64,000 nucleotides of DNA from an uncultured Thermoleophilaceae bacterium (GCA_963849605.1 CAWKHX010000002.1:398424-462423), one strand, 5' to 3'. Counted from the first letter of the stretch, positions 34,003-56,012 are shown. Program-made: numbers and translations. The notes: a model not told the origin generated them from the sequence alone.

Positions 34003-34016
34003 GCAAGCGACCGTCG

Positions 34017-37816: not shown

Positions 37817-37851
37817 AGGGTTGGAGGCAACGTCTAGCCAGGAGGTTGCTG

Positions 37852-38172: not shown

Positions 38173-38314
38173 ACGCATCTGGCCCCGCAGGCAGTCCCGT
38201 TTGCCTGGCAGTGCGTTGCCTTGTCGCGTGGGTCGCGGTTGGCGTGCTACCGCTGTTAGGCCAAAGGACTGCTAGCCGCAGGGCCAGCTCCAACTATCAG
38301 CGTACTCCTGCTGG

Positions 38315-39022
38315 TCAAGCGTGCGCTGCTTGACCCGCCCGTGACGCTTCTTTAATGAGGTCGGCCACCGCTTCCGGCTGCGACTGATAGATCGCGTGGC
38401 TGCCCTCGGCCTCGACCACGGTTGAGCCCGCCCGCTCGGACATGGATCGCTGAGCCGGCGGCGGGATCATCCGGTCTTCCGTCGTGAGGAGGTACCAGCT
38501 TGGCTTGTTCCGCCACGCCGCCTCGCTGATCGTGCCGCTCAGGGCTCCAAGGCCCCACGGGACCTGCGAGTCCGCCATGAATTCCGCCTCGTCGGCATCC
38601 ACGTCTGCCGCGAACGAGTCGTGGAACTTCTCTCTGTCGAGGAACAGGAAGCCGTCCGCCGGGGGCAGAATGGGCGGCACGGGCGCGTCGGGTGGCGGGT
38701 CAGCGATCAGCGTTTGCACCGATTCACCCGTGTCCGGCACGAAGCCCGCGATGTAGACCAGCGTCTCCACATTGGGGTCGTTGCCAGCTTCCGTTATCAC
38801 CGCGCCGCCATACGAATGGCCGACGAGCGTGACCGGTCCGTCCAGCGCATTGATGGCGCGCCGGGTCACGGCGGCGTCATCTTCGAGCGAAACCGTCGGA
38901 TTCTGGACGACGCTTACGTTGTAGCCGTCGTCCTTCAGGAGGCGGTACACAGCCTCCCATCCGGATCCGTCCACGAAGCCTCCGTGAACGAGAACAACGT
39001 TCCTGGCTGGGCCTGTAGCCAT
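38315..39022 (-). CDS. alpha/beta hydrolase
   Basis: VVLVHGGF and nucleophile elbow GHSYGG. Confidence 0.85.
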   Translation of the reverse strand: MATGPARNVVLVHGGFVDGSGWEAVYRLLKDDGYNVSVVQNPTVSLEDDAAVTRRAINALDGPVTLVGHSYGGAVITEAGNDPNVETLVYIAGFVPDTGESVQTLIADPPPDAPVPPILPPADGFLFLDREKFHDSFAADVDADEAEFMADSQVPWGLGALSGTISEAAWRNKPSWYLLTTEDRMIPPPAQRSMSERAGSTVVEAEGSHAIYQSQPEAVADLIKEASRAGQAAHA

Positions 39023-39094
39023 GAGGAACTCCTTACTTCGGGGCCGTATCGCCGACCCTACGCCTCTTGCCCAGGCACGTGCAAGCGCGTCGCG

Positions 39095-39646
39095 CTACGT
39101 CAGCGACGTGGTGAAGAAGCGCTGCACCGCTTCGAGGGGCTGGGTGCTTTGTTTTGCTCGACTCAAGATAAGCGCGCCCTCGAGAGCTGCGAGAAGTACT
39201 GAGGCATCGTCCTCTGCGGTTGACTCCTGGACGCCGAACTTGACCAAGGCGGCACGTACCGTGTCACGCCACTGATCGAGGAGAGCGCGAGCCTCTTCCC
39301 GTAGCCGGTCATTTCCGCCGGCATCGATGACGGTCGCGGCGAGGGGGCATCCCATCGTGAAGTTGCTCTCGACGAGCACTTGGTGCCACGGAGCGAAAAT
39401 TGCGTCGATCGCTTCGGCCAGAGTGGCCGCGTCAGCGAGCCCTGACTCGGTGTCGGCCAGCACCTCGGCGCCGGCCAGGTTGAGGGCCTCGGTGATGAGC
39501 TGCGTCTTCCCGCCCGGGAAGTAGCGCTGGAGGGACCCGCGAGGGCCGTCGGCATGGGCAACGATCTGGCGAAGGCCGACGCCGTGGACACCGCGTTCGC
39601 GAACTAGCGCGGCCGCACTGCGCACGATGCGGTCACGGGCGTTCAT
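39095..39646 (-). CDS. TetR-family transcriptional regulator
   Basis: N-terminal HTH RDRIVRSAAALVRERGVHGVGLRQIVAHADGPRGSLQRYF. ATG 39646 chosen as start. Confidence 0.85.
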   Translation of the reverse strand: MNARDRIVRSAAALVRERGVHGVGLRQIVAHADGPRGSLQRYFPGGKTQLITEALNLAGAEVLADTESGLADAATLAEAIDAIFAPWHQVLVESNFTMGCPLAATVIDAGGNDRLREEARALLDQWRDTVRAALVKFGVQESTAEDDASVLLAALEGALILSRAKQSTQPLEAVQRFFTTSLT

Positions 39647-39664
39647 GAAGACAGCGTATCGGGG

Positions 39665-39722
39665 CGCGATGACAGTCGTCATCGGTGCTTGCTATCGTCG
39701 CGATGACAGTCGTCATCGGTGC
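39665..39722. promoter_or_regulatory. two identical 24-bp direct repeats, each containing the 16-bp palindrome GATGACAGTCGTCATC (candidate TetR operators)
   Basis: CGCGATGACAGTCGTCATCGGTGC occurs at 39665-39688 and 39699-39722, in the divergent TetR/hydrolase intergenic region. Confidence 0.7.
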
Positions 39723-39734
39723 AAAGGAGCGCAC

Positions 39735-40571
39735 ATGCATTCGCCCATCTCTCCACTCTTTCGAGTCTGCGACGGGGTGCGGATTCGGTTCGCTGACAAC
39801 GAGGCGGACTCGTCGGGAGTGACCGTGTTGATGTTGAGCCCATGGCCGGAGAGCCTCTGGGCGTTCCGAAGGATCTGGGACCGGGTGTCGGACGCCGCGC
39901 ACGTGGTCGCGATCGACCTGCCGGGCTTTGGCCACTCAGACGGTCGCCCGGAGCTGATCGCACCGGATGCGATGGGCAAGTTCCTTGCGCGCCTCATCGA
40001 GGAATGGGGCCTGGGAGCGCCGCACGTAGTCGGTCCGGACGTGGGCACCGCCGCCGCGTTGTTCTTGGCGGCCAATGCTCCTGACCGTGTCACGAGCTTG
40101 ACCATCGGTGGAGGCGCGGTGCGTACGCCCATCGATGCCGGCGGCGCGCTCAAGGATGTCATCGAGGCCCCGAGCCTCGACGCCGTCCGACAGCTCGATG
40201 CCCGAGCCAACATCGGGTTCGCCGTCGAGCCCGCGGCCGGTGCCGACAGCGAGCCCGACGTCCATGAGGACTACGTCAGCGCGTACGACCTCGGGCGCTT
40301 TGCCGAGTCCGCTCGCTTTGTCCGCCACTACCCCGAGCAGAACCCGGTGCTGCGCGATCTCTTGCCTTCGATCACCACGCCGGCGCAGATCGTCGCCGGA
40401 CGCGAGGACGACTTGGTGCCGTGGTCCAACAACGAGTACCTCGCCGACCTGCTGCCCAACAGCGAGATCCACCCACTCGATGCCGGCCACTTCGCGTGGG
40501 AGCAGGCGTCCGATGAGTACGGCCGTCTCATCGTCGATTGGGTCAGCGGTGGCTTCCGCGGACTCACCTGA
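39735..40571 (+). CDS. alpha/beta hydrolase (likely target of the divergent TetR)
   Basis: AAGGAG SD then ATG 39735. Contains DLPGFGHSD. The nucleophile-elbow position reads GPDVG (Asp in place of Ser). Confidence 0.8.
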   Translation: MHSPISPLFRVCDGVRIRFADNEADSSGVTVLMLSPWPESLWAFRRIWDRVSDAAHVVAIDLPGFGHSDGRPELIAPDAMGKFLARLIEEWGLGAPHVVGPDVGTAAALFLAANAPDRVTSLTIGGGAVRTPIDAGGALKDVIEAPSLDAVRQLDARANIGFAVEPAAGADSEPDVHEDYVSAYDLGRFAESARFVRHYPEQNPVLRDLLPSITTPAQIVAGREDDLVPWSNNEYLADLLPNSEIHPLDAGHFAWEQASDEYGRLIVDWVSGGFRGLT

Positions 40572-41484
40572 TCGGCGGCGGAACTCCGTCTGCCGTGGCC
40601 GCGAGATCAGGATCCCAACCGCACACCGCGCAGCCGTGGCGGAACGCGGCCCGCCCGAATTCCACCGCCGCGGCGTGCGGATCGGGGCTGTCCCGGATCT
40701 CGTCCCAGTCCAGCACGTACTCGCCGAGCTCTGCGTCCCAATGGCCCGCGGCGGGGCTTAGGTCGGCGTCCCCGAAGCCGTCGGGCGGTGGATAGGCGAA
40801 GGCGAAAAACGCGGCCCGCTCGTGGTTGGGATCCCCGGGCCACCAGCCGATCGCTATTTGCTCGGCATCCCCTCCGTTGCGCATGATGAAGTCGTCGGAG
40901 GGAGCATCGGCCGGCTGGCCCGAGAAGAAGTTGACCGCGAGGTCGAAGGTGCCCCACCAGGCGTTGACCGGCGTCGAGCGTCCGCGAAACGGCGCGCGGA
41001 GGTCCGCCAGGACGAGCGCCGCCTGTGTGGCCGCCGCGAAGTAGGTCGCGACCTGGTCGGGATCGTAGGTCGCGTGCTGGTGGTCCTGGTCCAGCGGCGC
41101 CGTCCACGGCACCTCCTGTGGCGTCGGGTTGATCTCGACGGCGCCGCCGAGTCGCCCGACGGCCTCGAGCACCTCGCGCGTCACTTCGGCGACCGGACGG
41201 TTGGGCGTCAGGGCAATCCGCGTCTCGCGGCCGTCCGAGTGCTCCACCAACGCCTCATGCGTGCGCAAGTCGAGCGCCGCGACAATCGCGCCGGAGCCGT
41301 CCGGGGTCGGCAGCGCCAGCGTCTCCCACCCGCGCGCGGTCAGCCGCAGGGCGGCGTGCTGGAGCTGCGGTTCGGGCGGGGCCAGCTGGACCGCAAGCTT
41401 TCCGAGTACCTGGGTGTGCGCGTGGAGCGTGTCACAGGTCTCGCTCCACGAGTCGTAGCTCAGCGCTGGCCAGCCAGTGGACAT
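40564..41484 (-). CDS. DUF5996-family protein
   Basis: WPALSYDSWSETCDTLHAHTQVLGKLAV.. matches my memory of the DUF5996 N-terminus. Confidence 0.6.
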   Translation of the reverse strand: MSTGWPALSYDSWSETCDTLHAHTQVLGKLAVQLAPPEPQLQHAALRLTARGWETLALPTPDGSGAIVAALDLRTHEALVEHSDGRETRIALTPNRPVAEVTREVLEAVGRLGGAVEINPTPQEVPWTAPLDQDHQHATYDPDQVATYFAAATQAALVLADLRAPFRGRSTPVNAWWGTFDLAVNFFSGQPADAPSDDFIMRNGGDAEQIAIGWWPGDPNHERAAFFAFAYPPPDGFGDADLSPAAGHWDAELGEYVLDWDEIRDSPDPHAAAVEFGRAAFRHGCAVCGWDPDLAATADGVPPPIR

Positions 41485-41538
41485 GCTCAAAACGCTACTC
41501 CCCCTATTCGTTCGCATCACGCCGGCTCGGTTGGCGGG

Positions 41539-42038
41539 CTATCGGGTGACCGTTCCGGTGAAGGTCTCCCGGCCCTCCCCGTGTCTCGACACGAATACCG
41601 TTTTCAGCTGGCCTCCACCGCTGAGTCCCTCAAAGCGACCGCTGCCTCTCACGACCTCCCAATCGCCGCCCAGTCTCGGCCAGATCCGGTCGGAGTGAAG
41701 CTGATCGTCAGGCTGCCACTCGGGCAGTGGAACAGCCTCACTATTTCCTGATCCGGGAGCTGCACGGGCGCGTCGCGGAATGTTCCTCCTCGACAAAAAG
41801 CTGAGTCGCCGATGGTCGACGCGGGAAGAACCTGGCCCGTCGTCGTCTCCTCGGGGCTTTTGAGGGGCTCCAGGTGCGTCTTGATCACGATTGGCTCACC
41901 GCCCGCTTCGGCGGTCGTCCCGGTCTCTTCTGCGCCGGTAGTCGTTCCGCCCTCGTCGTCGTCATCGTCCCCACAGGCTGCGAGACCCACTGGCGTTACA
42001 ACCAGAGCCAGTGCCAGCAACAGCTTTACTCCGCCCAA
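41539..42038 (-). pseudogene. lipoprotein, frame change near 41687-41699
   Basis: Lipobox LAAC after the signal peptide (ORF 41649..42038). The C-terminus ..DRIWPRLGGDWEVVRGSGRFEGLSGGG.. is in the frame of ORF 41539..41796. Confidence 0.65.
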
Positions 42039-42091
42039 CTCGAGCCGCCTAGGGGTTGCGTGGAGGCAAGCCTCTCAGACGCCGCGATAAG

Positions 42092-42135
42092 CAAGCGTGA
42101 AGGTGAGCGACGGGACTCGAACCCGCGACCGCCTG
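42092..42135 (-). repeat. 44-nt exact copy of the tRNA-His 3' half (att-like, copy 1)
   Basis: GGTGAGCGACGGGACTCGAACCCGCGACCGCCTGGACCACAACC is identical to 49501-49544 and 53614-53657. Confidence 0.9.
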
Positions 42136-42227
42136 GACCACAACCCGGGGGCCCCTAGGTCACCTGGACTCACCTACGGCTCTGTAGAGCCACATCAGTT
42201 CCCTCAGATGATCTCAGGTTCCCTCAT

Positions 42228-42251
42228 ATTGAGTCCACGATTGAGTCCACG
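42228..42251 (+). repeat. perfect tandem 12-mer ATTGAGTCCACG x2 (candidate arm-type recombinase/RDF site)
   Basis: Seen directly. Related pairs occur at 49221-49243 and 49626-49649. Confidence 0.6.
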
Positions 42252-42359
42252 GATTCTGAGCGACTCCAGCCACAGTCGAGTCTGTAACGTCGCGGGCCTC
42301 CCTCGAGACGAAGGCTCTCCCAGTGGTCTCCGACGCGACTCAGATATTCGCGCAGACCC

Positions 42360-43592
42360 TCATGTCCTCGGCCGCACGCACCGTGCACTCGAGGCCGTGC
42401 GCTTTTCGATCCAGTTCACGCCGGCGTGGTCGGTCAGGCCGTGAAGGACGATCGACAGGAAGACCGTCAGGGCCGCGAGGTTGAAGATGCGCTCGCCCTC
42501 CGCGATGCCCGCGCCCAGCACGAGTAGCGAGAACGTCATCGAGGCCACGCCCTTCGGTCCGAACCAGGCCATGAACCAGCGTTCGGGCGAGGTGGCGTCA
42601 CTGCCGGCGAGCGACAGGTGGACGGCCAGGGGCCGGGCGACAAAGAGCACGAAGAGGGCAATTCCAACTGCGGCCAGGCCGTCGTCGAAGAGGCCTTCGG
42701 CGGTGAGGAGTGAGCCGAAGACGACGAAGATGCCGAGCTTCACCACCTCGATCACGTCCTCGGCGCGGCGCTCGAACGCCTCGCGCAGGTCGGGGCGCAG
42801 GATCCCGAGCGTGATCGCACACACGAAGACCGCGATCAGCCCGTTGCCCTCGGGCGGAAGGACGGCTACGCCATAGGCGCTGAACGCGATGCCGAGGCTG
42901 TACATCGCCTTCTCGTGCTGGCTGATCTCCGTGCCGAGAGCGAGCCGCTGGGGCATGAGCTTGGACCCCACGAAGCCCACAAGCACTCCGGCGGCGAAGC
43001 CGACGGACAGGTCCTGGAGCACGAACTCCCACCAGGTGAAATCGCCCTCGTCCGGGTCGAGCGCGATCACGAGCGCCAGCACGGCCGGCAGCGCCAGGCC
43101 ATCGTTAAGACCCGACTCCAGGTTCAGCGAGTGGCGAATGCGCTTCGGCACCCGCGGGTTCGTGACGACCCCCGAGGAGAGCACCGGGTCGGTCGGGGAA
43201 AGCAGCGCGCCTATGAGGAAGGCTTCGGTCCAACTGAGGTCGGTGAGCCCCTTCGCGGCCAGTGCGACGAAGACGCATGTGAGCGGCATCGCGAATACGA
43301 GCTTGCGCAGGGGGAGATGCCAGTGGCGCTGGAGGAGCTCCGCCTCCACCTCGAGCCCGTCCCTGAACAGGATCAGGATCAGCGCGACGATCGCGAGCGA
43401 CTGCACGAAGCCCGAGCCGGCATCGAACTCGAGCACCTCCGCGCCACCCTCGCCGAGCGCGAAGCCCGCCACCACGAACAGCGCAGTCAGTGACAGAAAG
43501 CTCCGCTTGGCGAGCCCCGACAGGAGGGCGCCGACGACCAGCAGGCCACCGAGCACGGCCACCGCCACCTCGAAGGCATGAAAGTCGTGCAC
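42360..43592 (-). CDS. cation:proton antiporter (CPA1/NhaP-like)
   Basis: About 410 aa with about 12 TM helices and motifs LSPTDPV and ESGLNDG. GTG 43592 chosen as start. Confidence 0.8.
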   Translation of the reverse strand: MHDFHAFEVAVAVLGGLLVVGALLSGLAKRSFLSLTALFVVAGFALGEGGAEVLEFDAGSGFVQSLAIVALILILFRDGLEVEAELLQRHWHLPLRKLVFAMPLTCVFVALAAKGLTDLSWTEAFLIGALLSPTDPVLSSGVVTNPRVPKRIRHSLNLESGLNDGLALPAVLALVIALDPDEGDFTWWEFVLQDLSVGFAAGVLVGFVGSKLMPQRLALGTEISQHEKAMYSLGIAFSAYGVAVLPPEGNGLIAVFVCAITLGILRPDLREAFERRAEDVIEVVKLGIFVVFGSLLTAEGLFDDGLAAVGIALFVLFVARPLAVHLSLAGSDATSPERWFMAWFGPKGVASMTFSLLVLGAGIAEGERIFNLAALTVFLSIVLHGLTDHAGVNWIEKRTASSARCVRPRT

Positions 43593-43602
43593 GCCGCGTA
43601 TC

Positions 43603-44616
43603 TTGCCGCGAGTGGTCCACCTCCGGATAGTCGCCCCGGCCGACCTGGCACCGAAGGTGGTCGAGCTCCTCTGCGCCGAGGGCTCCGTCCTCAACGTGAT
43701 CACCCTCCCGGGCGCAGCGCAGAAGCCGGCGGGCGACGTGATCCTCTGCGACGTCACGCCCGAGGACGCCAGCGTGATCATCGGCGATCTCAAGGAGCTG
43801 GGGATCCCGGCGGTCGGGTCAATCGCGATCGAGAAGATCGACAGCGTGATCTCCGACGCGGCCAAGGCGGCCGAGCGTCACGCCCCCGGGTTGCCGGGCG
43901 ATGCGGTCGTCTGGGAGGAGGTCGAGGCGCGGACTTCGGAGAACGTCGAGCTCTCCTGGAACTTCGTCGTCTTCATGGTGCTCGCGGTGCTGATCGCGAT
44001 GGCCGGCATCTTTCTCGACTCGCCGATCCTGATCATCGGGGCGATGGTCGTTGGCCCGGAGTTCGGGCCGCTGGCCGGGCTCTGCGTGGCCCTCGTCCAG
44101 CGCCAGCCCGAGACGGCCATGAGGTCGTTCAAGGCGCTGGCGGTCGGCTTTCCGGTGGCCATCACCGCGGGCTTCCTGATGTCGGTGGCCATTAAGGAGC
44201 TGGGGCTGGCGCCGGACGGCTTCTCGCCGGACAACCGCGAGTTCACCGAGTTCATCACCCACCCCGACTTCTTCTCGTTTCTGGTGGCCTTCCTGGCCGG
44301 GGTGGCGGGAGTGCTGTCGCTGACCTCCGCCAAGTCGGGCGCGCTAATCGGGGTGCTGATCTCCGTGACCACGATTCCAGCCGCGGCCAACATTGGCGTT
44401 GCCGCGGCCTACGGGGACGCGAGCGAGTGGCGCGGAGCGATGGCCCAGCTGACCGTGAACCTCGTGATGATTGTGCTGGCGGGCGTCGGGACCCTCTTCA
44501 TCCAGCGCCGCTATTACCGCAAGCGGCGAATCAGGCACCTGAGCGACCCCGACCGCGAGAAAGCGGGCCTGCCCATCGGACACTCGCTCCGCTCAACCAG
44601 AAGGCAGCGTCCCTGA
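43603..44616 (+). CDS. DUF389-domain membrane protein
   Basis: Soluble N-terminal domain plus a TM block IIGAMVVGPEFGPLAG typical of DUF389. Confidence 0.7.
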   Translation: MPRVVHLRIVAPADLAPKVVELLCAEGSVLNVITLPGAAQKPAGDVILCDVTPEDASVIIGDLKELGIPAVGSIAIEKIDSVISDAAKAAERHAPGLPGDAVVWEEVEARTSENVELSWNFVVFMVLAVLIAMAGIFLDSPILIIGAMVVGPEFGPLAGLCVALVQRQPETAMRSFKALAVGFPVAITAGFLMSVAIKELGLAPDGFSPDNREFTEFITHPDFFSFLVAFLAGVAGVLSLTSAKSGALIGVLISVTTIPAAANIGVAAAYGDASEWRGAMAQLTVNLVMIVLAGVGTLFIQRRYYRKRRIRHLSDPDREKAGLPIGHSLRSTRRQRP

Positions 44617-44690
44617 TCGCCGCAAGAGCGGCCCCGGCGCGGACGGCGTCGTCGGGTGCCGAGCAGGGTGCGCGTTCTTACACTCATCTC

Positions 44691-46097
44691 ATGGCTCGCG
44701 CTGGTCTTCGCATGTATGGCGTTACGGCGATCGAGGTCGTATTCGCCACGGCCGTCGCATCGCTGGGCGTGGCGATTCTCGACGGTGTCGCTCCGGCGGT
44801 CGGGCTTGGGGTCTTGTACTTGCTCGCGGTCGCGTTCGTTGCGTTTCGTCGCGGAGAGGTGCCGGCACTGGCGACCGCGGTCCTGTCGGCGCTGGTGTTC
44901 AACTTCCTGTTCATCGACCCGCGCTACCGGCTGGCGATCTCGCAGTCGGATGATCTGGTGGCGCTCGTTGTGTTCCTCGTTGTCGCGGCGGTGGTAGGCC
45001 GGCTTGCGGCGACGGCGCGGGCGCGTGCCGGGGAGGCGCAGGCGAGGGCGCGGGAGGCGGAGCGCCATGAACGAGTTGCACAGTTGCTCGCCGAAGCGGC
45101 GTCGTCGCTCCTCGTGGGCGGTCCGGTGGAGCAGGAGCTGGCCGGCGAGGAGAGCCGGCTAGGTGCAGCGTTTGCGCAGGCAGGATTGCGCGTGTCGCTG
45201 TCGCCGGTCCCGGCACCTCACAGCGGCGAGGTGTCGACGAGCCTGAGGACCTCGACGCGGAGCGGCTGGTTGTATGGGGATTCCGCGCACGGCTGGGACA
45301 GGGACGCGCTCGGGCGCCTTTGCGAGCCGCTGCGGCGACTGTTCGACCTCGCTTTGGAGCGCGAGCGGGTAGCGGAGCTGTCGACGGAGGCGGAGGCGGC
45401 AACCCGCGCGGATGTGGCGAAGACCGCAGTGCTGCACGCGATCTCGCACGATCTGCGATCACCGTTGACCGCGATCACGACGGCGCTCGCCGGCCTGCGC
45501 GACTCGGAGCATGAGCGTGACCGCGACGAGCTCCTATCGGTGCTCGACGAGGAGACGCAGCGGCTTAACCGGATGGTCACGGACCTTCTCGATCTGTCAC
45601 GGATCGAGGCCGGCGCTCTCCATCCGCAAACCGACTGGTGCGACCTGCGTGACGTCGTGACGAGCGCTTTGGCCGACGCCCGTTCGGGGCGCGGGGGTCA
45701 TCCGGTCGAAGTTCGCCTGCCGGACGACCTTCCGCTAGTGCGGGCGGACGCGGCGCAGGTCGAGCGGGTGTTCGCGAACTTGATCGAGAACGCGTTCAAG
45801 TTCTCGGCGAGCGGGGCGTCCGTGGAGATCAGCGGCGGCACCGGCGGCTCGAAGGTGTTCGTGCGCGTCGCGAACCGCGGCCGACCGATCCCTCAGAGTC
45901 AGCGCCGCTATGTGTTCGAGCCGTTCTTCCGCGGCCGCGAGGGTGCGGTCGGCGCGGGGCTCGGGCTGGCGATCTGCCGCGGCTTCGTCGAGGCGAACGG
46001 CGGTCAGATCGCGTTGCAGTCCGCGCGCGAGGACGCGACAGCGTTCGCGGTGAGTTTTCCGTTGGCGGCGCAGCCGAGCATGTCCCATGAGCGCTGA
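44691..46097 (+). CDS. KdpD-like sensor histidine kinase lacking the N-terminal KdpD/Usp sensor domains
   Basis: DUF4118-like TM region (..FNFLFIDPRY..), H-box HAISHDLRSPL, HATPase boxes (NLIENAFKF, GAGLGLAIC). Confidence 0.8.
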   Translation: MARAGLRMYGVTAIEVVFATAVASLGVAILDGVAPAVGLGVLYLLAVAFVAFRRGEVPALATAVLSALVFNFLFIDPRYRLAISQSDDLVALVVFLVVAAVVGRLAATARARAGEAQARAREAERHERVAQLLAEAASSLLVGGPVEQELAGEESRLGAAFAQAGLRVSLSPVPAPHSGEVSTSLRTSTRSGWLYGDSAHGWDRDALGRLCEPLRRLFDLALERERVAELSTEAEAATRADVAKTAVLHAISHDLRSPLTAITTALAGLRDSEHERDRDELLSVLDEETQRLNRMVTDLLDLSRIEAGALHPQTDWCDLRDVVTSALADARSGRGGHPVEVRLPDDLPLVRADAAQVERVFANLIENAFKFSASGASVEISGGTGGSKVFVRVANRGRPIPQSQRRYVFEPFFRGREGAVGAGLGLAICRGFVEANGGQIALQSAREDATAFAVSFPLAAQPSMSHER

Positions 46098-46776
46098 CGG
46101 CCCGCGCGTTCTGGTCGTTGACGACGAGCCGCAAATCCTCCGTGGCCTGAAGGTCGTGCTCCGCCAGGCCGGGTTCGAGGTTGAGACGGCGGCGACCAAA
46201 AGCGAGGCGCTCGACCGCGTCGCCGTGCGCCCGCCGGAGATCCTGGTACTAGACCTGATCCTCCCGGACGGCAGCGGCGTCGACGTTTGCGAGGAGGTGC
46301 GCGGCTGGAGCCGGCTGCCGATCATCGTCTTGTCGGCGGTGGGCGACGAGCGCGAGAAGGTACGCGCGCTCGACGCGGGCGCGGACGACTACCTGACGAA
46401 GCCGTTCGGCACGGACGAGCTGCTGGCGCGACTGCGCGCGCTCATGCGCCGCTCCGGCGACGCCGGCCAGCCGGTGATTTCGCTTGGCGACCTGTCGATC
46501 GACGTGGCCGGCCACACCGTCATGCGCGGCGGCGAGCAGATCCACCTCACGCCGCTCGAGTTCGACCTCTTGCGCGTGCTCGCGCTCCACGCCGGCAAGC
46601 TGGTCACGCACCGACAGCTCTTGACCGAGGTGTGGGGGCCGGAGTACGTCGACGAGACGCACTACCTGCGGGTACATATCGCGCACATCCGGGCGAAGCT
46701 CCAGCCGGACGCGTCGAGCCCGCGCTACCTCGTGACCGATCCGGGCGTCGGCTACCGGCTGCGCGAGCCTGCTTGA
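46087..46776 (+). CDS. OmpR-family response regulator (KdpE-like)
   Basis: REC domain (VLVVDDEPQI.., LVLDLILPDGSG) plus winged helix (LTPLEFDLLRVLA.., GVGYRL). Overlaps the kinase gene by 11 nt. Confidence 0.9.
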   Translation: MSADGPRVLVVDDEPQILRGLKVVLRQAGFEVETAATKSEALDRVAVRPPEILVLDLILPDGSGVDVCEEVRGWSRLPIIVLSAVGDEREKVRALDAGADDYLTKPFGTDELLARLRALMRRSGDAGQPVISLGDLSIDVAGHTVMRGGEQIHLTPLEFDLLRVLALHAGKLVTHRQLLTEVWGPEYVDETHYLRVHIAHIRAKLQPDASSPRYLVTDPGVGYRLREPA

Positions 46777-46846
46777 CGAAATCTCTACGCGCGCGCCCGG
46801 AAACTTGACCCGGGCTTGACGGCGCGGCGGGTGTACTCCAGCGTGG

Positions 46847-48763
46847 ATGACCACGACTGCAGAGGAGCCGGCGCGACCAACGTCGGTGAACGTGCTCGCG
46901 CTAGCGGCGCTCGGGGTCGTCTTCGGCGACATCGGGACGAGCCCGCTGTACGCGATGCAGGCCACCTTCGCCGAGGACGGCGGTGGGGTGAAGGTGACAG
47001 AGGCAGACGTCTACGGAGTGATCTCGCTCGTGGCCTGGTCGCTGACGCTGATGGTCTCGATCAAGTTCGTCACGTTCATCATGCGCGCCGACAACGAGGG
47101 CGAGGGCGGCGTAATGGCGCTCTTCGCGCTTCTGCGCCGCGCCGATATCGGCGGCCGCAGGGTGAAGCTGTCGCTCTTGTCCGCGGGCCTTGTCGGCGTC
47201 GCCCTCTTCTACGCGGACGGGATGCTCACGCCAGCGATCTCGGTGCTATCGGCGGTAGAGGGCATCGAAGTCGCGGCCCCGAGCTTGTCGTCGATCATCC
47301 TGCCCTGCACCATCGCGGTGGTGGCCGGACTGTTCGCGATCCAGCGCCACGGCACGACAACTGTCGGGCGCCTGTTCGCGCCGATCATCGGCCTGTGGTT
47401 CGCGGCACTCGCAGCGGCCGGCATCGCGGAGATCGTCAAGCATCCGGACGCGCTGCTCGGCCTGTCACCGACCTATGCCGTCGAGTTCTTCGCGGCACAG
47501 CCGCTGGAGGCGTTCCTCGCACTCGGTGCGGTCGTGCTCGTCTTCACCGGGTCGGAAGCACTGTACGCGGACATGGGCCACTTCGGCCGCCGTGCGATCA
47601 GCCGGGCATGGTTCTTCGTCGCGTTCCCGGCGCTGATGCTCAACTACGTCGGCCAGGCGTCGCTCATCCTCCACTCGCCCGACGCCGTCTCTAACCCCTT
47701 CTACCTCTTGATCCCGGACTGGTCGCGGGTGCCGATGATCGTGCTGGCTACCTGCGCGACGCTGATCGCCTCTCAGGCGGTCATCTCGGGCGCGTTCTCG
47801 GTGACGCGGCAGGTCGTCCAGCTCGGCTTCCTGCCACGCGTCGACATCAAGCACACCTCCGCGGAGACGATCGGGCAGGTCTACCTCCCGGCCGTCAACT
47901 GGACGCTGTTCGTCTTGGTCGTCGGGGTCGTGCTCAGCTTCGGCTCCTCGTCGCAGCTCGCAACCGCCTACGGCATCGCCGTCACCGGCACGCTCCTGAT
48001 CGACTCGATCCTGTTCCTGGCCGTCGCGCGTGTGCTGTGGCGAAAGCCGCGCTGGATGATCGCCGCCGGGATCATCGGGTTCGTCGCCGCCGATCTCCTC
48101 TTTCTCGCCGCCAACCTGCCCAAGATCACCCACGGCGGCTGGTTCCCTCTGCTTGTCGGCGCCGTCGTCCTCCTGCTGCTCACGACCTGGGACCAAGGCC
48201 GCCGGCGCGTAACCGACCGCCGCGTCGCCGCCGAGGGGCCGCTGCGCGGCTTCATCGAGGAGATGCACAGCGGAAGGCGGCCCGCGACACAGCTGCCGGG
48301 GGCCGCTGTCTACTTGAACCCGTCGCCCGACACGACACCGCTGGCGCTGCGCGTCAGCCAGACACGCCTCCACGCGATCCCCGAAGAGGTCGTGATCGTG
48401 ACCGTCGAGACCACGAACCAGCCGCACGTCCGGCCCGTAGAAAGGATCGTGTGGGACGACCTCGGCTACGCCCACGACGGCTACAGCCACATGACACTGC
48501 GATTCGGCTACCAAGACGCCCCCGACGTGCCAAGGGCGCTCGGCGCGGCGCGACGGGCCGACCTCCTGGAGGTGGACTTCAACCCCTACCACGCGACCTA
48601 CTACCTCTCGCAGATGAGCCTCGTTCCCACCGACGAAGGCGGGATGCCGCGCTGGCGCAAAGCCCTTTTCATGGCGATGGCCCGCAACGCAGCCAGTCCC
48701 GCCAGCTACTTCAACCTGCCCCCCGAGCGTGTAGTCACGCTCGGCTCACAGATCCGGTTCTGA
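46847..48763 (+). CDS. kup: KUP/HAK/KT potassium uptake transporter
   Basis: LGVVFGDIGTSPLYAM and GEGGVMAL signatures. 638 aa. Confidence 0.9.
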   Translation: MTTTAEEPARPTSVNVLALAALGVVFGDIGTSPLYAMQATFAEDGGGVKVTEADVYGVISLVAWSLTLMVSIKFVTFIMRADNEGEGGVMALFALLRRADIGGRRVKLSLLSAGLVGVALFYADGMLTPAISVLSAVEGIEVAAPSLSSIILPCTIAVVAGLFAIQRHGTTTVGRLFAPIIGLWFAALAAAGIAEIVKHPDALLGLSPTYAVEFFAAQPLEAFLALGAVVLVFTGSEALYADMGHFGRRAISRAWFFVAFPALMLNYVGQASLILHSPDAVSNPFYLLIPDWSRVPMIVLATCATLIASQAVISGAFSVTRQVVQLGFLPRVDIKHTSAETIGQVYLPAVNWTLFVLVVGVVLSFGSSSQLATAYGIAVTGTLLIDSILFLAVARVLWRKPRWMIAAGIIGFVAADLLFLAANLPKITHGGWFPLLVGAVVLLLLTTWDQGRRRVTDRRVAAEGPLRGFIEEMHSGRRPATQLPGAAVYLNPSPDTTPLALRVSQTRLHAIPEEVVIVTVETTNQPHVRPVERIVWDDLGYAHDGYSHMTLRFGYQDAPDVPRALGAARRADLLEVDFNPYHATYYLSQMSLVPTDEGGMPRWRKALFMAMARNAASPASYFNLPPERVVTLGSQIRF

Positions 48764-48767
48764 GCAC

Positions 48768-49178
48768 ATGCTGACGAGCACGATCGTCGTCGGCTACACC
48801 GCGAGCGACGGAGCTGCCAGAGCACTCGCGCAGGCGGCCCAGCTCGTCGAGCCCCCGGGCAAACTCCTAATCGTGCACGTGCTCGAGCCCGCGCAGGCCA
48901 TCAGCTCGCGCATCGAACCGGTCACGCTCAAGAAACGCCAAGGTCAGCGCGCCATCCTGGAGCACGCCCGAAGGCTTGCCGATCCAGCCGGTACCGACAT
49001 CGAGACGATCCCGGCAGTCGGAGACCCAGCTCCCGAGCTCTTGCGGATCGCCGACGAACGTGGCGCCGGGCTAATCGCGGTCGGACGCGGGCGGGCGCAT
49101 CGCCTGGAACTCCGGCGCCAGTCCGTCTGCGAGAAACTCTTGCGCGAAACGAGTAGGTGCGTACTCGTCGTGCCATAA
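48768..49178 (+). CDS. universal stress protein
   Basis: IVVGYTASDGA.., LIAVGRGR.., CVLVVP. Confidence 0.8.
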   Translation: MLTSTIVVGYTASDGAARALAQAAQLVEPPGKLLIVHVLEPAQAISSRIEPVTLKKRQGQRAILEHARRLADPAGTDIETIPAVGDPAPELLRIADERGAGLIAVGRGRAHRLELRRQSVCEKLLRETSRCVLVVP

Positions 49179-49220
49179 CCGCAGAGGGGCTCGCGTCGCG
49201 TGCCGCGGTGGCTTACACAA

Positions 49221-49243
49221 ATTGAGGCCATATTGAGACCACG
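49221..49243 (+). repeat. tandem ATTGAGGCCAT / ATTGAGACCACG pair, related to 42228-42251
   Basis: Seen directly. Lies at the tRNA-proximal end of island B, in the same orientation as the distal pair. Confidence 0.55.
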
Positions 49244-49500
49244 GGCGAGACCGCTGGCCCGCGCGTGTACTCAGAAGGCAGGCCGTTGCAGGGGTTTTCC
49301 ACTTGAGACTACGAGAGGTCCGGGTCGGACCCCGAAATGGAGACCAGGAGCTCACTTGCGGCACTCGAACCCCCCAAACCATCGTTTTTGCAGCGCTTTC
49401 CACGTAAGGCCGCTAGGAGACCCGGCCGGACTCTCAAGCGAAGACCAAGCACTCACATTCGGCCGCTAAGCGTCTGAAACCCCTGATTTGCAGGGAAAAG

Positions 49501-49544
49501 GGTGAGCGACGGGACTCGAACCCGCGACCGCCTGGACCACAACC
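49501..49544 (-). repeat. 44-nt exact copy of the tRNA-His 3' half (att-like, copy 2)
   Basis: Identical to copies 1 and 3. It also shares the flanking AG (49545-49546) and the nearby TTGCAGGG motif with copy 3. Confidence 0.9.
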
Positions 49545-49673
49545 AGTGGGTAATGGGTCAGGTGAGTCCTATCTGCGCTTGCTAGAGCGGATCACATCCT
49601 CTGAGGTCATCTCAGTTCCGCTCATATTGGAGCCACCAACGGAGCCACGCTGACGCTCCCGTCGCGATTGCCA

Positions 49674-50081
49674 TCAGCGTTTCGCGTTCCGGCCAGAGCT
49701 AGCGCCACGCGTTGTCTTCGCAGCGGCACCGGACGCCGGCCTCGACGCCCGCTGCTTTCGGGCTTCTCGGCGTGGTGCGGCACCGACGAGCGACACCGAG
49801 CGGTCTCCGAAGACGGCCTCGATCTTCAACTTCCCGCCGAGCGCGCCGACGTAGCCGGCCAAGGTCGACAGGTGGATGTCGCCCTCGCGCTCGATCCGCG
49901 AGATGTTCGCCTGGGACACCTTCATCCGTTTCGCGAGCTCGGTCTGGCTCACCCCGCGCTCACCGCGCGCGTCAGCAAGCTCAAGCGCGACCTCCATCGC
50001 CCGCTTGTGCTCGTCGACCCGCGCCCGCCGCTTCGGATCGCGGTCGATCGGGTCACTCAGCTTCTTGAACTTGTTAGCCAT
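49674..50081 (-). CDS. higA: XRE-family HTH antitoxin (HigA-like) with basic C-terminal tail
   Basis: HTH VSQTELAKRMKVSQANISRIE. Lies downstream of the toxin with a 1-nt overlap (TGATG). Confidence 0.7.
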   Translation of the reverse strand: MANKFKKLSDPIDRDPKRRARVDEHKRAMEVALELADARGERGVSQTELAKRMKVSQANISRIEREGDIHLSTLAGYVGALGGKLKIEAVFGDRSVSLVGAAPRREARKQRASRPASGAAAKTTRGASSGRNAKR

Positions 50082-50431
50082 CAGATCTCCCCTTCGCGCC
50101 GTAGCTGGTCGAGGTGCTCCGCATAGAGCCTGTCCGCCTCCGGGATCATCCGGCGGTACCAGTCAGTCCACTCACCGCGCTTGTCGCCCCCGATCAACAG
50201 GATCGCCGACCGGCGCGGATCGAACGCGAACAACACGCGGATCGTGCCCGCCCTGAGCTCCTTCATGTTCTTGTGTCGTGAGCCCTCGAGCGTGTCGACG
50301 GCCGGCCTCCCGAGCGCCGGGCCACGCTCCTCGAGCAGCTCGACAGCCGCCCGCAACAGCTCTTGGTCGCTGGCGCTCAGGGAGTCCCACCAATCGCCGA
50401 ACTCGTCTGTGTACTCGACGTCCCATGACAC
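50081..50431 (-). CDS. higB: RelE/ParE-superfamily toxin (HigB / Gp49-like)
   Basis: 116 aa, ..MKELRAGTIRVLFAFDPRRSAILLIGGDKRG... Toxin-first gene order as in higBA. Confidence 0.7.
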   Translation of the reverse strand: MSWDVEYTDEFGDWWDSLSASDQELLRAAVELLEERGPALGRPAVDTLEGSRHKNMKELRAGTIRVLFAFDPRRSAILLIGGDKRGEWTDWYRRMIPEADRLYAEHLDQLRREGEI

Positions 50432-50531
50432 GACCGAAGTATAACGTCAACATTGTAGAACGCAAGCATTGTTACAAAAGTTGTTACTTTCGTCGCCAAC
50501 CGGCAACACACGAGCACGTACCGTGGGCCGA
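50432..50531. promoter_or_regulatory. AT-richer divergent promoter/operator region of higBA
   Basis: On the minus strand: TTGCGT, 16 nt, TATACT, then 11 nt to the higB ATG (near-leaderless). Direct GTAACAA x2 and ACAATG x2 repeats lie just upstream. Confidence 0.4.
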
Positions 50532-50855
50532 ATGAGACGCACGATCACGGCCTCTGACTTCGGTTGGCCCGAGCCCATCCCGGAACAGCTTGAGCAGCGC
50601 AAGCGAATCTCCGACCGAGCCGTGTTGCTCGGCCACATCGACCACATCATTCGTCCGCCAGCCTGGGTCTACGAGGAGATGGAGCTGGCGATTAGGCACG
50701 CCCTCGCAGGCAATCGCACGGCGAAGATCGAAAGCCGCGACGGCAGCGACTACGTCGCCGCCGACTTGCTCGAGCGCTGGGAACTCGAGGAACTGCTTGA
50801 GACGTACGCCCGACCGGCAGACGACCCCGGTTATCGCGACGGTCGGGGTCTTTAG
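50532..50855 (+). CDS. hypothetical protein (107 aa)
   Basis: In-frame ATG 50532 (MRRTITASDFGWPEP..) within track ORF 50469..50855. Confidence 0.5.
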   Translation: MRRTITASDFGWPEPIPEQLEQRKRISDRAVLLGHIDHIIRPPAWVYEEMELAIRHALAGNRTAKIESRDGSDYVAADLLERWELEELLETYARPADDPGYRDGRGL

Positions 50856-51081
50856 GGTCCCTGATGGGTCCTAACTCGAACCCGAACGCCGGTCCGGTTC
50901 TAGCTTTGCTTCAGTGCCTTGATCGGCGAACTCGAGCGCCCTGATCGAGCAGGCCGCCCGCGTCCTTCCGCCGCGTGCGGCCTCGCCCACTCGTGATCGT
51001 CTTCGGATCGAGCGCTCGCAACGAAGGACGCTGACCTGCGTGTCGAAGCTCGTGACCGCCCCACGCCCTCGCCGACCGGGC

Positions 51082-51861
51082 TCAGGGAGTGCCGGTGCCC
51101 GGCGCGCAGCCGGCCTGGTCGAGACAGCGTCCTTGCATGTCGATGTGGCTGACGTCGACGCTCTCTAGCTGCCGGCCATCTGCGTCGTAGGCAACCATTC
51201 TCTCCAGGGCGCGCCAGCCGTCGACCATCAGGACGAATCCGCCGTTTACGCCCGCGTCAACAAGCGGTGCCCCGTTGGCGTACTCGAGCTCGACCCGATC
51301 GACCGAGCGCGCTGTGACGCCAAGGAGCGGAAAGCGGCCTCGTTGGTCGAAGAACTCCCCCGACCCGACGGGTGTCGGTCCAAGGACGACGGCCGCGTGC
51401 TCATCGAACCGCTCGCGCCAGCCCTCAATCGTGGCACCGATTCCGACGCCCTTGTCGAGGGCGAAGTCCAGGACTGTCTCTCCGCCGGGCAGCCGGTGTC
51501 GTGTCACGTAGAGCCCTATACCGTCGGTCTCGGCGATGCGACGGCCCCCTTGCTCTCGCACCCATGCTGGCGCGTCGTCTTCCGGCCGCAGGGCGCGTCC
51601 CGGCGCGTCGTCATCCTCGCCCGCGACCCAGCCCGCGAACGCGCCCGTGAGGTCGTCGATTGCGGCGCGCGTCGTCGGGACCGCGTACGCACCGCCACTC
51701 GCGAGGACGACGATGGCCGACATAATCGCCAGCGTCCGTAGCCCCGGGGTACGGCCGCCACCCATCAGTGAGGGGCGCCTGCGTGCTGTTTCGTCTTCGG
51801 CGGCCACGCGGGCGAACTCGCCTGCGAGGTCGTTGAGAAATTGAGTACGGTGCTTGGTCAC
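51082..51861 (-). CDS. putative single-pass anti-sigma factor
   Basis: Overlaps the ECF sigma gene stop by 4 nt. It has a short cytoplasmic N-terminus, one TM helix (LAIMSAIVVLASGGAYAV) and an extracytoplasmic domain. Confidence 0.6.
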   Translation of the reverse strand: MTKHRTQFLNDLAGEFARVAAEDETARRRPSLMGGGRTPGLRTLAIMSAIVVLASGGAYAVPTTRAAIDDLTGAFAGWVAGEDDDAPGRALRPEDDAPAWVREQGGRRIAETDGIGLYVTRHRLPGGETVLDFALDKGVGIGATIEGWRERFDEHAAVVLGPTPVGSGEFFDQRGRFPLLGVTARSVDRVELEYANGAPLVDAGVNGGFVLMVDGWRALERMVAYDADGRQLESVDVSHIDMQGRCLDQAGCAPGTGTP

Positions 51862-52433
51862 GGTGCGACCTCCGGTCGGGCGTTCATGTCAACGGCGTCG
51901 GCCAGGCGGCGCAGAGCCCGCGAGACGCGCGCGCGGGCGGTTTGCTCTGATATGCCGAGTGTGTCGGCGACCTCCGGGTAGGGCCTCTCCTCGATGATCC
52001 TCAGGCGAAGGGCCTCGCGCTGGTCGCCGGATAAGTCTGAGAACGCGGTGGCGATCCGACCGCGCAGATCCGCCAGTCCAGCTAGCTCAACCACCCTTCC
52101 GTAGTCATCGTCGGCGATGGGGGGCACCTGAATGCCGAGGCGCTCGACCGCCTTGCGCCGCACCATGCCCTTGCGGTTGTAGTGGCTCAGCTGGTGGCGG
52201 GCGATCCCATAGAGCCAACCCGCTGCCTCTGCGTCGGCAGAGCCGCGAAAGCGGCGGCGGTGCATGAACGCCTGCGCAAACGTCTCGGCGGTGAGGTCAC
52301 GCGCCACCTCGATGTCGAAGGTGCGCCGAGCGAAGAAGACAAGCAACTCGTCAGCGGTTGCACCGTAAACCTCCTCGAATGCGGAGGGATCGGTGCGTGC
52401 TCGCCGCAGGCTGGCTGCAAGTCCAATTGTCAT
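51858..52433 (-). CDS. ECF-type RNA polymerase sigma factor
   Basis: Region 2 (..DLTAETFAQAF..WLYGIARH) and region 4 (LSGDQREALRLRIIEERPYPEVADTLGISEQTARARVSRALRRL). Confidence 0.85.
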   Translation of the reverse strand: MTIGLAASLRRARTDPSAFEEVYGATADELLVFFARRTFDIEVARDLTAETFAQAFMHRRRFRGSADAEAAGWLYGIARHQLSHYNRKGMVRRKAVERLGIQVPPIADDDYGRVVELAGLADLRGRIATAFSDLSGDQREALRLRIIEERPYPEVADTLGISEQTARARVSRALRRLADAVDMNARPEVAP

Positions 52434-52574
52434 CTCAGCGTATAGGTGCCACAACCCCGTCCGTCTGTGACGAGCTCGAGCCACCGGCCCCCACGGTGGG
52501 CCGGAACGGCAACCGTCTTACCCCCCGGGAGTCGCCGTGCCGAGCCGCAGGTCGAAGGCAAAAAGATCTTGCAG

Positions 52575-53126
52575 CTACGGCTTCTCGGCGGAGAACACCG
52601 AGAAGATCCCGCTGGTATGGATTCCCACGTTTACGAAACCAGCAGAGTGGAGCCATTCCCGCAGCGCGCGCTCATCGCCGACGCAACCGAAACCGCCGAC
52701 ACCGGGTCTGACTCTGAGCCGATCCAGCAGCCGCTCGCCGCGGACAATCGTCGAGCCGACTAGTTGACCGCTCGGCCGAAGGCAGCGCGCCGCTTCGTGC
52801 AGCGCAGCTTCGGGATGATCGAAGCAATGCAGACCGAAATACGACAGGAAGAGATCGGCCTCGCCATCCGACAGCGGCAGGCTGCTCGCGTCCGCGTCCG
52901 CGAAGACCGGCTGTAGCAGGCCGCGCGCTGCTGCCCTCCGGCGGGCGCGCGCGAGCATTGCGGGCACGAGGTCGAAGCCGAGGTAGCGCACGCGCTGCTC
53001 GGGGCGCACTCGCCTAAGCGCCACACCAGAACCACACGGACAGTCCACGATCGTCGACTCATCCGGCACATCGCCGATCGCTTGCATGCTGGCGTAGTAA
53101 GGGCGGATGTCACTCCCCCAGATCAC
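52575..53126 (-). CDS. class I SAM-dependent methyltransferase (N-terminus unresolved)
   Basis: Motif I VDCPCGSG and a Methyltransf_11-like core. The frame is open and coding-like up to about 53270, but the first canonical start is GTG 53126. Confidence 0.65.
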   Translation of the reverse strand: MIWGSDIRPYYASMQAIGDVPDESTIVDCPCGSGVALRRVRPEQRVRYLGFDLVPAMLARARRRAAARGLLQPVFADADASSLPLSDGEADLFLSYFGLHCFDHPEAALHEAARCLRPSGQLVGSTIVRGERLLDRLRVRPGVGGFGCVGDERALREWLHSAGFVNVGIHTSGIFSVFSAEKP

Positions 53127-53613
53127 GCCTGCAACGAGGCGCGACAGGCGCTCGCGCTCGATGTAGCCGCTGTAGCCCGCTCCGAACAGCCCAGAAAACA
53201 GCTTGCGGTTTCGCTCGACGGCAGCCGTGATGACCGGGGTACGGGCGCGCCCGCGACCTGGCTCAAGCGGCGCTTCTGCTCAACTCGAAAAGGAGGCGTC
53301 TCGATCCGCTCATCGAGGCGCCCGCCTTGGACGAGGAGCAGGTGCCAGATGCTTGCGCCCGATTACTCCTGCTTCGCGCGAGAACCAGACGCAGCTCCCG
53401 GCATTCCCTCAGCGTTCAGCGCAAACGAAGGCACGAATGGAACAGCGGTGGTCCAGGCGGTCCCTGGCCGTCCAAGCGATCCGTGAAAGTGGCTAGTTTG
53501 CAGGGAGTTCCAGGCAGAACGGCCTCACGCGTTAGGTGACACGGAACTCCACTCCTTGGTCACAGGCCCTTGTCGTCTGGCCGACACAGACCGCCAGTTT
53601 GCAGGGATTTAGG

Positions 53614-53687
53614 GGTGAGCGACGGGACTCGAACCCGCGACCGCCTGGACCACAACCAGGAGCTCTACCAACTGAGCTACGCCCACC
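53614..53687 (-). tRNA. tRNA-His: tRNA-His (anticodon GUG) with encoded G-1
   Basis: Hand-folded cloverleaf: G-1, acceptor GTGGGCG/CGCTCAC, anticodon loop TTGTGGT, T-loop TTCGAGT, discriminator C. Confidence 0.9.
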
Positions 53688-55310: not shown

Positions 55311-55317
55311 CTCGAAG

Positions 55318-55390
55318 CGCCCCGGGCAGGATTCGAACCTGCGGCCCGCTGCTTAGAAGGCAGCCGCTCTGTCCACTGAGCTACCGGGGC
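55318..55390 (-). tRNA. tRNA-Arg: tRNA-Arg (anticodon UCU)
   Basis: Hand-folded: acceptor GCCCCGG/CCGGGGC, anticodon loop CTTCTAA, T-loop TTCGAAT. Confidence 0.85.
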
Positions 55391-55829: not shown

Positions 55830-55830
55830 G

Positions 55831-55903
55831 TCGGGGCGCCCGGATTTGAACCGGGGACCTCCGCCACCCAAAGGCGGCGCGCTACCAGGCTGCGCCACGC
55901 CCC
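55831..55903 (-). tRNA. tRNA-Pro: tRNA-Pro (anticodon UGG)
   Basis: Hand-folded: acceptor GGGGCGT/CGCCCCG, anticodon loop TTTGGGT, T-loop TTCAAAT. Confidence 0.85.
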
Positions 55904-56012
55904 GATGGGGGCGAGTCTAGGCGTCCACTGGGCTGCAGCTACTTAAAGCCTGCAACGCGGCTTGCCGAACGAACTACCGAGGCCGCCCGCCACGCCCTCC
56001 CTACACGGACGT

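Follow-up and report, generated by a model that had tools for sequence, protein, structure and literature searches.

Two integrase-less tandem islands at a tRNA-His gene of an uncultured Thermoleophilaceae bacterium, probably derived from a family of tRNA-His-specific elements

What brought three copies of one tRNA-His 3' half, with blocks of cargo genes between them, onto a single stretch of DNA from an uncultured Thermoleophilaceae bacterium (GCA_963849605.1 CAWKHX010000002.1:398424-462423; 64,000 nucleotides, referred to as a whole as the window)? The intervals between copies 1 and 2 and between copies 2 and 3 are called here island A and island B, respectively. The first-pass annotation of this sequence had described them as two tandem islands devoid of an integrase gene, and the anatomy of the sites, an arm shared with a family of related elements, the unoccupied site seen in relatives and the lack of a recombinase all support that description. 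We consider it probable that the islands stem from two successive integrations into the 3' half of tRNA-His and that they are islands of the cis-mobilisable element (CIME) type, whose integrase modules have been lost. Whether they are decayed or mobilised in trans, the choice left by the first-pass annotation, is refined rather than settled by our finding that the arm repeats of A and B differ, since the two islands would, for this reason, need integrases of different arm specificity.

The exact 44-mer GGTGAGCGACGGGACTCGAACCCGCGACCGCCTGGACCACAACC occurs three times on the plus strand, at 42102-42145, 49501-49544 and 53614-53657, with no occurrence expected by chance (100 shuffles); the reported triplicate is thus real, and only its first position (42092-42135) had been placed 10 nt too low, as copy 1 begins at 42102. 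Copies 2 and 3 are identical over 47 nt (49500-49546 and 53613-53659). Copy 3 (53614-53657) forms the attL-type junction of island B and corresponds to the 3' half of an intact tRNA-His(GTG) gene on the minus strand (53612-53686), recognized by ARAGORN and by Rfam (tRNA, 63.9 bits, E 3.9e-12). The other two copies, which had been said to lack the tRNA 5' half, are truncated halves and not genes, because copy 1 (42102-42145, minus strand) reaches at best 18.6 bits in Rfam, where the gathering score is 47, with its anticodon arm unaligned, and copy 2 (49500-49546, minus strand) has no match to the tRNA clan in Rfam except an 18-nt, 7.8-bit tmRNA fragment. Neither forms a complete cloverleaf above the Rfam tRNA threshold, and copy 3 is the sole real tRNA-His. 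A tRNA-His call made by ARAGORN at 42102-42177, over copy 1, was treated as spurious in view of the same Rfam scores. Copy 1 is accordingly described as a displaced tRNA-His 3' half, the distal (attR-type) att site of island A, and copy 2 as the A-B junction and the distal att site of island B.

The state of the locus before the islands can be approached through its relatives. In L077, L081 and L070 (handles of this form denote the sequences with which the window was compared), an intact tRNA-His is joined directly to AAGCAAGC, the trailer that adjoins copy 1 in the window, where the ancestral tRNA-His 3' trailer (ATAAGCAAGCGTGAA, 42087-42101, minus strand) now lies 11.5 kb from the tRNA; in L080 and L072, it stands after the truncated copy that lies outermost. 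An intact tRNA with this trailer behind it represents the unoccupied-site configuration. The upstream flank is 83-88% identical to that of the window in L077, L080 and L081, and L080, in which this identity amounts to 87%, has a different 1.4-kb insert at the same site. Both intervals are built like site-specifically integrated elements, with a displaced tRNA 3' half at the far end of each.

Each distal core is followed by an arm of the family described below. The P arm of island A (42146-42252, minus strand) contains a palindrome (GGCTCTGTAGAGCC, 42178-42191) and two tandem copies of a 12-nt repeat (ATTGAGTCCACG, 42228-42251); that of island B (49547-49650, minus strand) contains an imperfect palindrome (CGCTTGCTAGAGCG, 49576-49589) and the repeats GGAGCCAC(C/G) at 49629-49637 and 49641-49649. 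The likeness of the two distal ends, previously estimated by eye at 70-75% identity, is real, with an alignment score of 26 against -12.6 +/- 4.7 in shuffles, but is weaker overall, identity being about two-thirds over 107 nt and about 75% only in the inner ~50 nt. On the tRNA-proximal side, the P' arm of island A (49179-49499, minus strand) carries degenerate copies of the A-type repeat (TTGAGACCACG, 49233-49243, and TTGAGACTACG, 49303-49313); it has three A-type matches with at most two mismatches (two on the plus and one on the minus strand) in 322 nt, for ~0.08 expected, as estimated from the window-wide rate. The corresponding arm of island B (53127-53611, minus strand) holds a 12-nt direct repeat of another kind (AGTTTGCAGGGA, 53495-53506 and 53596-53607, 101 nt apart).

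The window is not alone in this architecture. A scan for exact matches to the 44-mer in one genome per species returned at least 119 tiles of 8 kb, nearly all from Thermoleophilia (Solirubrobacterales, Thermoleophilaceae and Conexibacteraceae), several contigs having more than one copy. Among the matches listed, the copies with enough flanking sequence comprise 100 intact tRNA-His genes and 28-29 truncated copies. In a simple screen, 22 of 29 truncated copies had a tandem repeat beside the core (20 after one low-complexity run and one case with more than one mismatch are dropped); the repeats mostly have a 12-nt period, start 77-84 nt from the core, represent at least 12 different sequences and are usually preceded by a short palindrome with the consensus GGCTCTnTAGAGCC. 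Islands A (ATTGAGTCCACG x2) and B (GGAGCCAC x2) match this pattern exactly, the repeat of A having the same offset from the core (~82 nt) and the same 12-nt period as most other truncated copies. A-like arms are present in L121/L122/L127 and L124, and a B-like arm, 89% identical over 170 nt including the core, in L120, which also has an intact A-type tandem repeat where the P' arm copies of island A would lie. The same arm type is joined to unrelated cargo (A type in island A, L122/L127 and L124; GAGCTACCAATT type in L053, L060 and L076), and most elements that have no integrase cease to be homologous only a few nt from the repeats. Together, the sequence comparisons support a family of tRNA-His-specific integrative elements that is widespread in Thermoleophilia, and of which a limited literature search returned no description. 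Virus contigs gave no match to the 44-mer or to the arm pattern, and there is no evidence for a prophage origin of the islands.

Three relatives with a full-length integrase explain what the arm may be. In L019 and L021, an integrase open reading frame (ORF) of 400-470 aa, with Phage_integrase and SAM-like or central domains and the catalytic motifs HDLRHTF...LGH..TT.IYA.Y, ends inside the arm, its tail being encoded by the tandem repeats (GVQFGVQSEANS...); in L019, a gene of the HTH_17 excisionase type lies upstream of it. L019, L021 and L040 all have the 3' end of the integrase within an arm to which those of A and B are homologous. The integrase family has at least 4,543 proteins at E<=1e-20 and, among its closest full-length homologues (60 of the 120 listed, whose sequences were read), many have tandem tetrapeptide tails followed by LSETE.NS, which corresponds to the translated arm. 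Read in the frame of the relatives' integrase, the arm of island A gives GLNRGLNMREPEII and then a stop, and that of island B GSVGGSNMSGTEMTSEDVIRSSKRR and then a stop, the latter similar to integrase tails such as GAGSNSGSNLSTT; the A-repeat tail GLNRGLNM corresponds to TTGAGTCCACG x2 and the B-repeat tail GS.GGSNMS to GGAGCCAC x2. These readings may preserve a remnant of the integrase tail, and this possible resemblance may be all that is left of the gene in both islands. The comparison supports the view that the ~100 bp inside the distal repeats are an attP P arm overlapped by the 3' end of an integrase gene, and the interpretation of the islands is sharpened because their distal ends belong to one arm family that, in relatives, lies at the end of a tyrosine integrase gene. 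In the islands, cargo reaches to ~105 nt (A) and ~25 nt (B) from the arm repeats, so that the rest of the gene would have been removed.

The repeats themselves are not merely a peptide repeat of the integrase, a reading that we discarded: in L026, they are not part of the integrase ORF, which terminates at a distance of ~390 nt from the core, in L053 and L060 they contain an in-frame stop, and they recur in the opposite, tRNA-proximal arm in L024, L128 and L120 and, in degenerate form, in island A. They apparently act at the DNA level and, because of this, we regard them as putative arm-type integrase sites. When proteins were compared with the integrase C-terminus, the 120 best matches (P0121-P0240) were all 86-273 aa long, and contigs of more than 10 kb carry at least 21 of these short proteins; soil metagenomes thus seem to be rich in 3' remnants of the family, with a possible ranking bias.

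Variants of the same design were observed elsewhere. In L128 (1537-1720 and 7129-7215), the architecture occurs at tRNA-Leu(GAG), where a truncated 3' half (90% identity over 49 nt) is accompanied by the palindrome GGCTCTCTAGAGCC, and TGTTATC repeats are present in each of the two arms that flank a 5.5-kb integrase-less island with SIR2_2 and DUF6602 genes; L123, L125 and L126 have a similar arm beside a similar tRNA-like half. A 2.27-kb AbiEi/AbiEii element in L024 (4330-4440) has an integrase C-terminal fragment by its tRNA-proximal arm and a tail remnant in its distal arm, which suggests two elements fused by deletion. A complete relative (L071/L026, 10.3 kb) encodes the integrase, an HTH_17 protein and an AAA_25 ATPase, and has no recognizable conjugation genes.

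No recombinase, excisionase or conjugation ORF had been noticed at first, and the search of the window agrees with this. A hidden Markov model built from three full-length integrases, which detects an unrelated XerC-like integrase in L047 at 6e-21, gave no match at E<=10 against the six-frame ORFs of the whole 64 kb; Pfam revealed no recombinase, transposase or transfer gene among ~58 window ORFs, and no recombinase among all plausible ORFs of 42146-53611. The islands thus combine the exact 44-47 nt repeats that bound them and the displaced trailer with the lack of integrase, excisionase and transfer genes (Pfam and the model), as in a CIME. The duplicated tRNA 3' half and the repeated sites beside the core are those of an integrative element, in which binding of the latter by an integrase is presumed. 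A self-mobile element would have its own tyrosine recombinase beside the att site, and none is present in the 64-kb window; the island ORFs include neither conjugation nor FtsK-type transfer and replication genes, as an integrative and conjugative element (ICE), or its actinomycete form (AICE), would have.

Loss of the integrase is frequent in the family. Among 20 distinct elements, three have a full-length integrase (L019, L021 and L026), three only a C-terminal remnant of 46-62 aa (L040, L075 and L095) and 14 none, including both islands of the window, L121/L122/L127, L124 and L120 (the last five from metagenomes). A metagenome scan with degenerate A and B arm patterns yielded five contigs with A-like or B-like arms, all without integrase. 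Protein searches with a synthetic C-terminus and the A and B tails found no integrase ending in GLNRGLNM or GSVGGSNMS, only loosely similar fragments (for instance P0152 and P0193), and the arm scans and tail searches together returned no integrase-bearing version of A or B, no cognate integrase, no circular junction and no second genomic context for either.

We propose the following course of events. As a free circle, the element would have an excisionase-like gene and a tyrosine integrase gene of ~400-470 aa that run into the attachment site, which would consist, in order, of the integrase 3' end, two tandem 12-nt repeats, a short palindrome, the ~44-bp core and a second arm. Recombination between the core and the tRNA would rebuild the tRNA from element DNA and displace the original 3' half, with its trailer AAGCAAGC, to the distal end of the insert. 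The first integration would have brought island A and the second, into the rebuilt tRNA, island B, with core copy 2 left between them, an order that we infer. The excisionase/integrase module would later have been lost from both islands down to the arm repeats, its absence being observed and its deletion deduced. What would be left is cargo between att sites with intact cores, for K+/Na+ homeostasis in A, and HigBA, an extracytoplasmic function (ECF) sigma module and a methyltransferase in B. Excision would give predictable junctions: GATTTGCAGGGAAAAG + core + CGGGGGCCCCTAGG for a circle of A, CAGTTTGCAGGGATTTAGG + core + AGTGGGTAATGGG for one of B, CAGTTTGCAGGGATTTAGG + core + CGGGGGCCCC for one of A and B together, and AAGCAAGCGTGAA + core + AGGAGCTCTACC for the restored attB. 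The islands are most likely unable to move alone and are now fixed cargo islands, which a cognate integrase from a related element could, in principle, excise. Island A looks more competent than B in this respect, because it keeps repeat copies in both arms, and B only in its distal arm.

Several observations weigh against this proposal. The comparison with relatives that the first-pass annotation had recommended gave the joined tRNA and trailer in three of them but no clean empty-site allele: no relative has the same flanks on both sides of a clean empty site, and the downstream gene order differs in L077, L072 and L122. The comparison of base composition and codon usage, recommended as well, does not separate the islands, whose G+C content and G+C content at third codon positions are those of the flanks, so that composition lends no independent support. 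The counts of the 44-mer scan, taken among the matches listed and requiring an exact core, come from a biased sample. That an integrase binds the repeats is presumed from their anatomy only, and no B-type copies were found in the tRNA-proximal arm of B. The insertion order and the integrase deletion are reconstructed, not observed and, given the mosaic cargo of B discussed below, a single insertion followed by a single deletion may be too simple a history for this island.

The frequency of integrase-less elements raises another explanation, namely that the islands are still-active cassettes: integrase-less units with a ~150-bp core and P arm would be the normal travelling form, and integrases from other parts of the genome or from incoming elements would excise, capture and reshuffle them, the tRNA-His locus then resembling a cassette array. 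With 14 of 20 elements lacking an integrase and three having only a 46-62 aa remnant, with homology that mostly stops within a few nt of the repeats and not at random points in a former 1.2-kb gene, and with one arm type joined to unrelated cargo (island A, L122/L127 and L124; L053, L060 and L076), the pattern is one that such cassettes would produce, and the matching repeats in both arms of L024 and L128 and the integrase-less element of the same design at tRNA-Leu in L128 are in line with it. Nevertheless, elements that lose their integrase cannot excise and therefore accumulate, which alone can explain their dominance, and the exact-core search favours well-preserved ends; for neither A nor B did the searches return a circular junction, the same unit in two contexts or a cognate integrase, and B has no repeats in its proximal arm. 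The conservation of the arm fits either selection on mobilized integrase-less units or the accumulation of non-excising elements. We regard active cassettes as unlikely, and we are yet more reserved about the broader idea that tRNA-His loci of Thermoleophilia (and tRNA-Leu loci) act as cassette arrays served by trans-acting integrases, a tRNA-anchored analogue of integron cassettes.

The cargo of island B bears on a further explanation, in which the islands never had their own integrase at this site and blocks of cargo were swapped by homologous or illegitimate recombination among arrays of att modules. The ECF sigma factor and the neighbouring gene for a 259-aa protein are 93% identical to L128, where they adjoin the tRNA-Leu array, and the homology breaks at ~51072; because of this match, the cargo of B is apparently a mosaic. 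A 40-nt segment near that end of the L128 homology (50873-50911, with a T-arm-like CTCGAACCCG motif) is 90% identical to L122 608-647 (L121/L122), in an unrelated context; these are possibly the decayed remains of a junction within island B, in which case the island would be composite. The module shared with L128, this segment and the unstable gene order left of copy 1 among relatives are what swapping of cargo would predict, but a mosaic is equally expected if the exchange preceded integration, in the parent elements, each island is bounded as a single integration predicts and the integrase frame still reads like a tail in both arms. We find swapping at the locus improbable. That the repeats are not of mobile-element origin, and stem from local duplication of the tRNA 3' half or from faulty assembly, is scarcely credible and effectively refuted, as nothing beyond the bare presence of the repeats speaks for it, and against it stand the same core and arm beside integrase genes in many independent assemblies, the displaced trailer exactly where integration predicts it and a contig from an independent run with the same island B genes in the same order.

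How, then, do two successive integrations followed by loss of the integrase compare with known systems? The pSAM2/SLP1-type elements of actinomycetes have an xis-int pair beside attP and an identity segment that runs from the anticodon loop to the 3' end of the tRNA. They share with the present family the phylum and the position of xis-int by attP and differ from the islands of the window in carrying replication and transfer genes, whereas the islands have neither, nor an integrase. Integron cassettes are like the islands by analogy only, as promoter-independent units of cargo that are stacked in an array and have a conserved recombination site at the end of each; unlike in integrons, there is no intI in the window, no attI and no attC, the sites being tRNA halves with arm repeats, and the analogy rests only on the commonness of integrase-less units.

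By structure, the islands match the published definition of the CIME, in which the genes for integration and transfer were lost and attL and attR kept (PMC5704250), as in the ICESt1 and ICESt3 arrays of Streptococcus thermophilus, which go with an accretion model. As in S. thermophilus, the islands stand in tandem at the 3' end of the target gene, and the proposed course is integration, decay and further integration; in contrast, the host belongs to Thermoleophilia, the target is tRNA-His, the parent elements have no recognizable conjugation genes, the array includes no integrase-bearing partner, and it is for the CIMEs that cis-mobilization has been shown experimentally. The most similar cases described are those of Dehalococcoides and Prochlorococcus. 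In Dehalococcoides, about half (15) of the tandem ssrA islands have no integration module and were suggested to be CIMEs or fixed islands (PMC3146451). There, too, several tandem islands lie downstream of one small RNA gene, bounded by its 3'-end repeat and conserved adjacent sequence, but these involve a serine recombinase (DsiB, CcrB-like) and a 20-bp ssrA repeat, instead of a tyrosine integrase, a 44-47 bp tRNA core and paired arm repeats. In Prochlorococcus, with its tycheposons and tRNA-flanked islands, older elements are displaced further into the island as new ones arrive, and earlier events are marked by fragmented integrases and extra partial tRNAs (bioRxiv 10.1101/2020.12.28.424599). 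These are likewise tyrosine-recombinase elements at tRNA genes with adaptive cargo, and L071/L026 has a comparable small module (integrase, HTH_17, AAA_25); they differ in phylum and integrase lineage, and in the present family the integrase frame runs into the arm repeats. Leftover islands of this kind are thus already well known, and the element family of soil Thermoleophilia does not seem to have been described.

The reading given here explains by which route two adaptive gene sets, a K+/Na+ homeostasis module with its own two-component system and a toxin-antitoxin pair plus ECF sigma module, reached the tRNA-His locus, and it marks this locus as an insertion hotspot. The interest lies mainly in the pattern of the family and not in the tRNA-His locus itself. 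Thermoleophilia are a little-studied but abundant soil class, and islands in their metagenome-assembled genomes could be traced by a recognizable att architecture, in which the 44-bp tRNA-His core is accompanied by a palindrome and by paired 12-nt repeats that the integrase gene overlaps with its 3' end. If the lack of integrase reflects function and not decay, the family would offer a tractable case of trans-mobilized cargo cassettes.

The genes proposed earlier for the two islands were confirmed by Pfam wherever they had been named after a family, with the exception of an anti-sigma factor, a label not backed by any Pfam match of the ORF concerned (51082-51861). The cargo region of island A (42360-49178, both strands) encodes a Na+/H+ exchanger (42360-43865, minus strand) and, on the plus strand, a DUF389 protein (43603-44616), a DUF4118 histidine kinase (44427-46097), an OmpR-type response regulator (46087-46776), the K+ transporter Kup (46847-48763) and a Usp protein (48768-49178). 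The cargo region of island B (49674-53126, both strands) encodes, on the minus strand, a HigA-like HTH_3 protein (49674-50081), Gp49/HigB (50081-50431), the 259-aa protein (51082-51861), the ECF sigma factor (51858-52484) and a methyltransferase (52575-53126), with a hypothetical ORF on the plus strand (50469-50855). No homology to the cargo of A or B was seen in any of the 119 other tRNA-His tiles listed. Exact look-ups of the island B proteins gave matches only on short contigs from one independent sequencing run, with the same genes in the same order, and those of the flank proteins and of Kup returned nothing.

Some further motifs lie close to the cores on the tRNA-proximal side. The motif TTGCAGGG, reported at about 5 nt from the repeat in both islands, is indeed 5 nt from the 44-mer in A but 7 nt in B, and is found class-wide beside tRNA-His. 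In the proximal arm of A, TTTTGCAGCG (at ~49386) and TTTGCAGGGA (49487-49496) are about 100 nt apart, and the paired motifs of the A and B proximal arms look like orphan trailers without a core. Among the matches listed, 37 of 100 tRNA copies and 15 of 28 truncated copies have a hexamer of the type T(T/A)GCAG at a distance of 17-19 nt from the core, where the background is 4%. Core positions 26-40 recur in inverted form in the proximal arm of B, as a 15-nt stretch (GTGGTCCAGGCGGTC, 53448-53462) at 152 nt from the core; this may be either a secondary core-type site or a coincidence (E about 0.02).

Outside the islands, tRNA-Arg(TCT) (55317-55390) and tRNA-Pro(TGG) (55830-55904) are located on the same strand as tRNA-His, 1.6-2.2 kb upstream, and no repeated halves of either were seen in the ARAGORN and Rfam output. 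Left of copy 1, where no further degenerate cores or arms were found, the gene order is not conserved from ~33400 to 42100, and this may be ~9 kb of variable DNA without recognizable att sites. In L121 and L122, the core is ~1.25 kb from the homologue of window positions 32117-33292; in L072, the trailer and core are 50 nt from the homologue of the GYD-domain gene at 37839-38172; and, in L077, a DUF5996 gene lies 5.4 kb from the tRNA.

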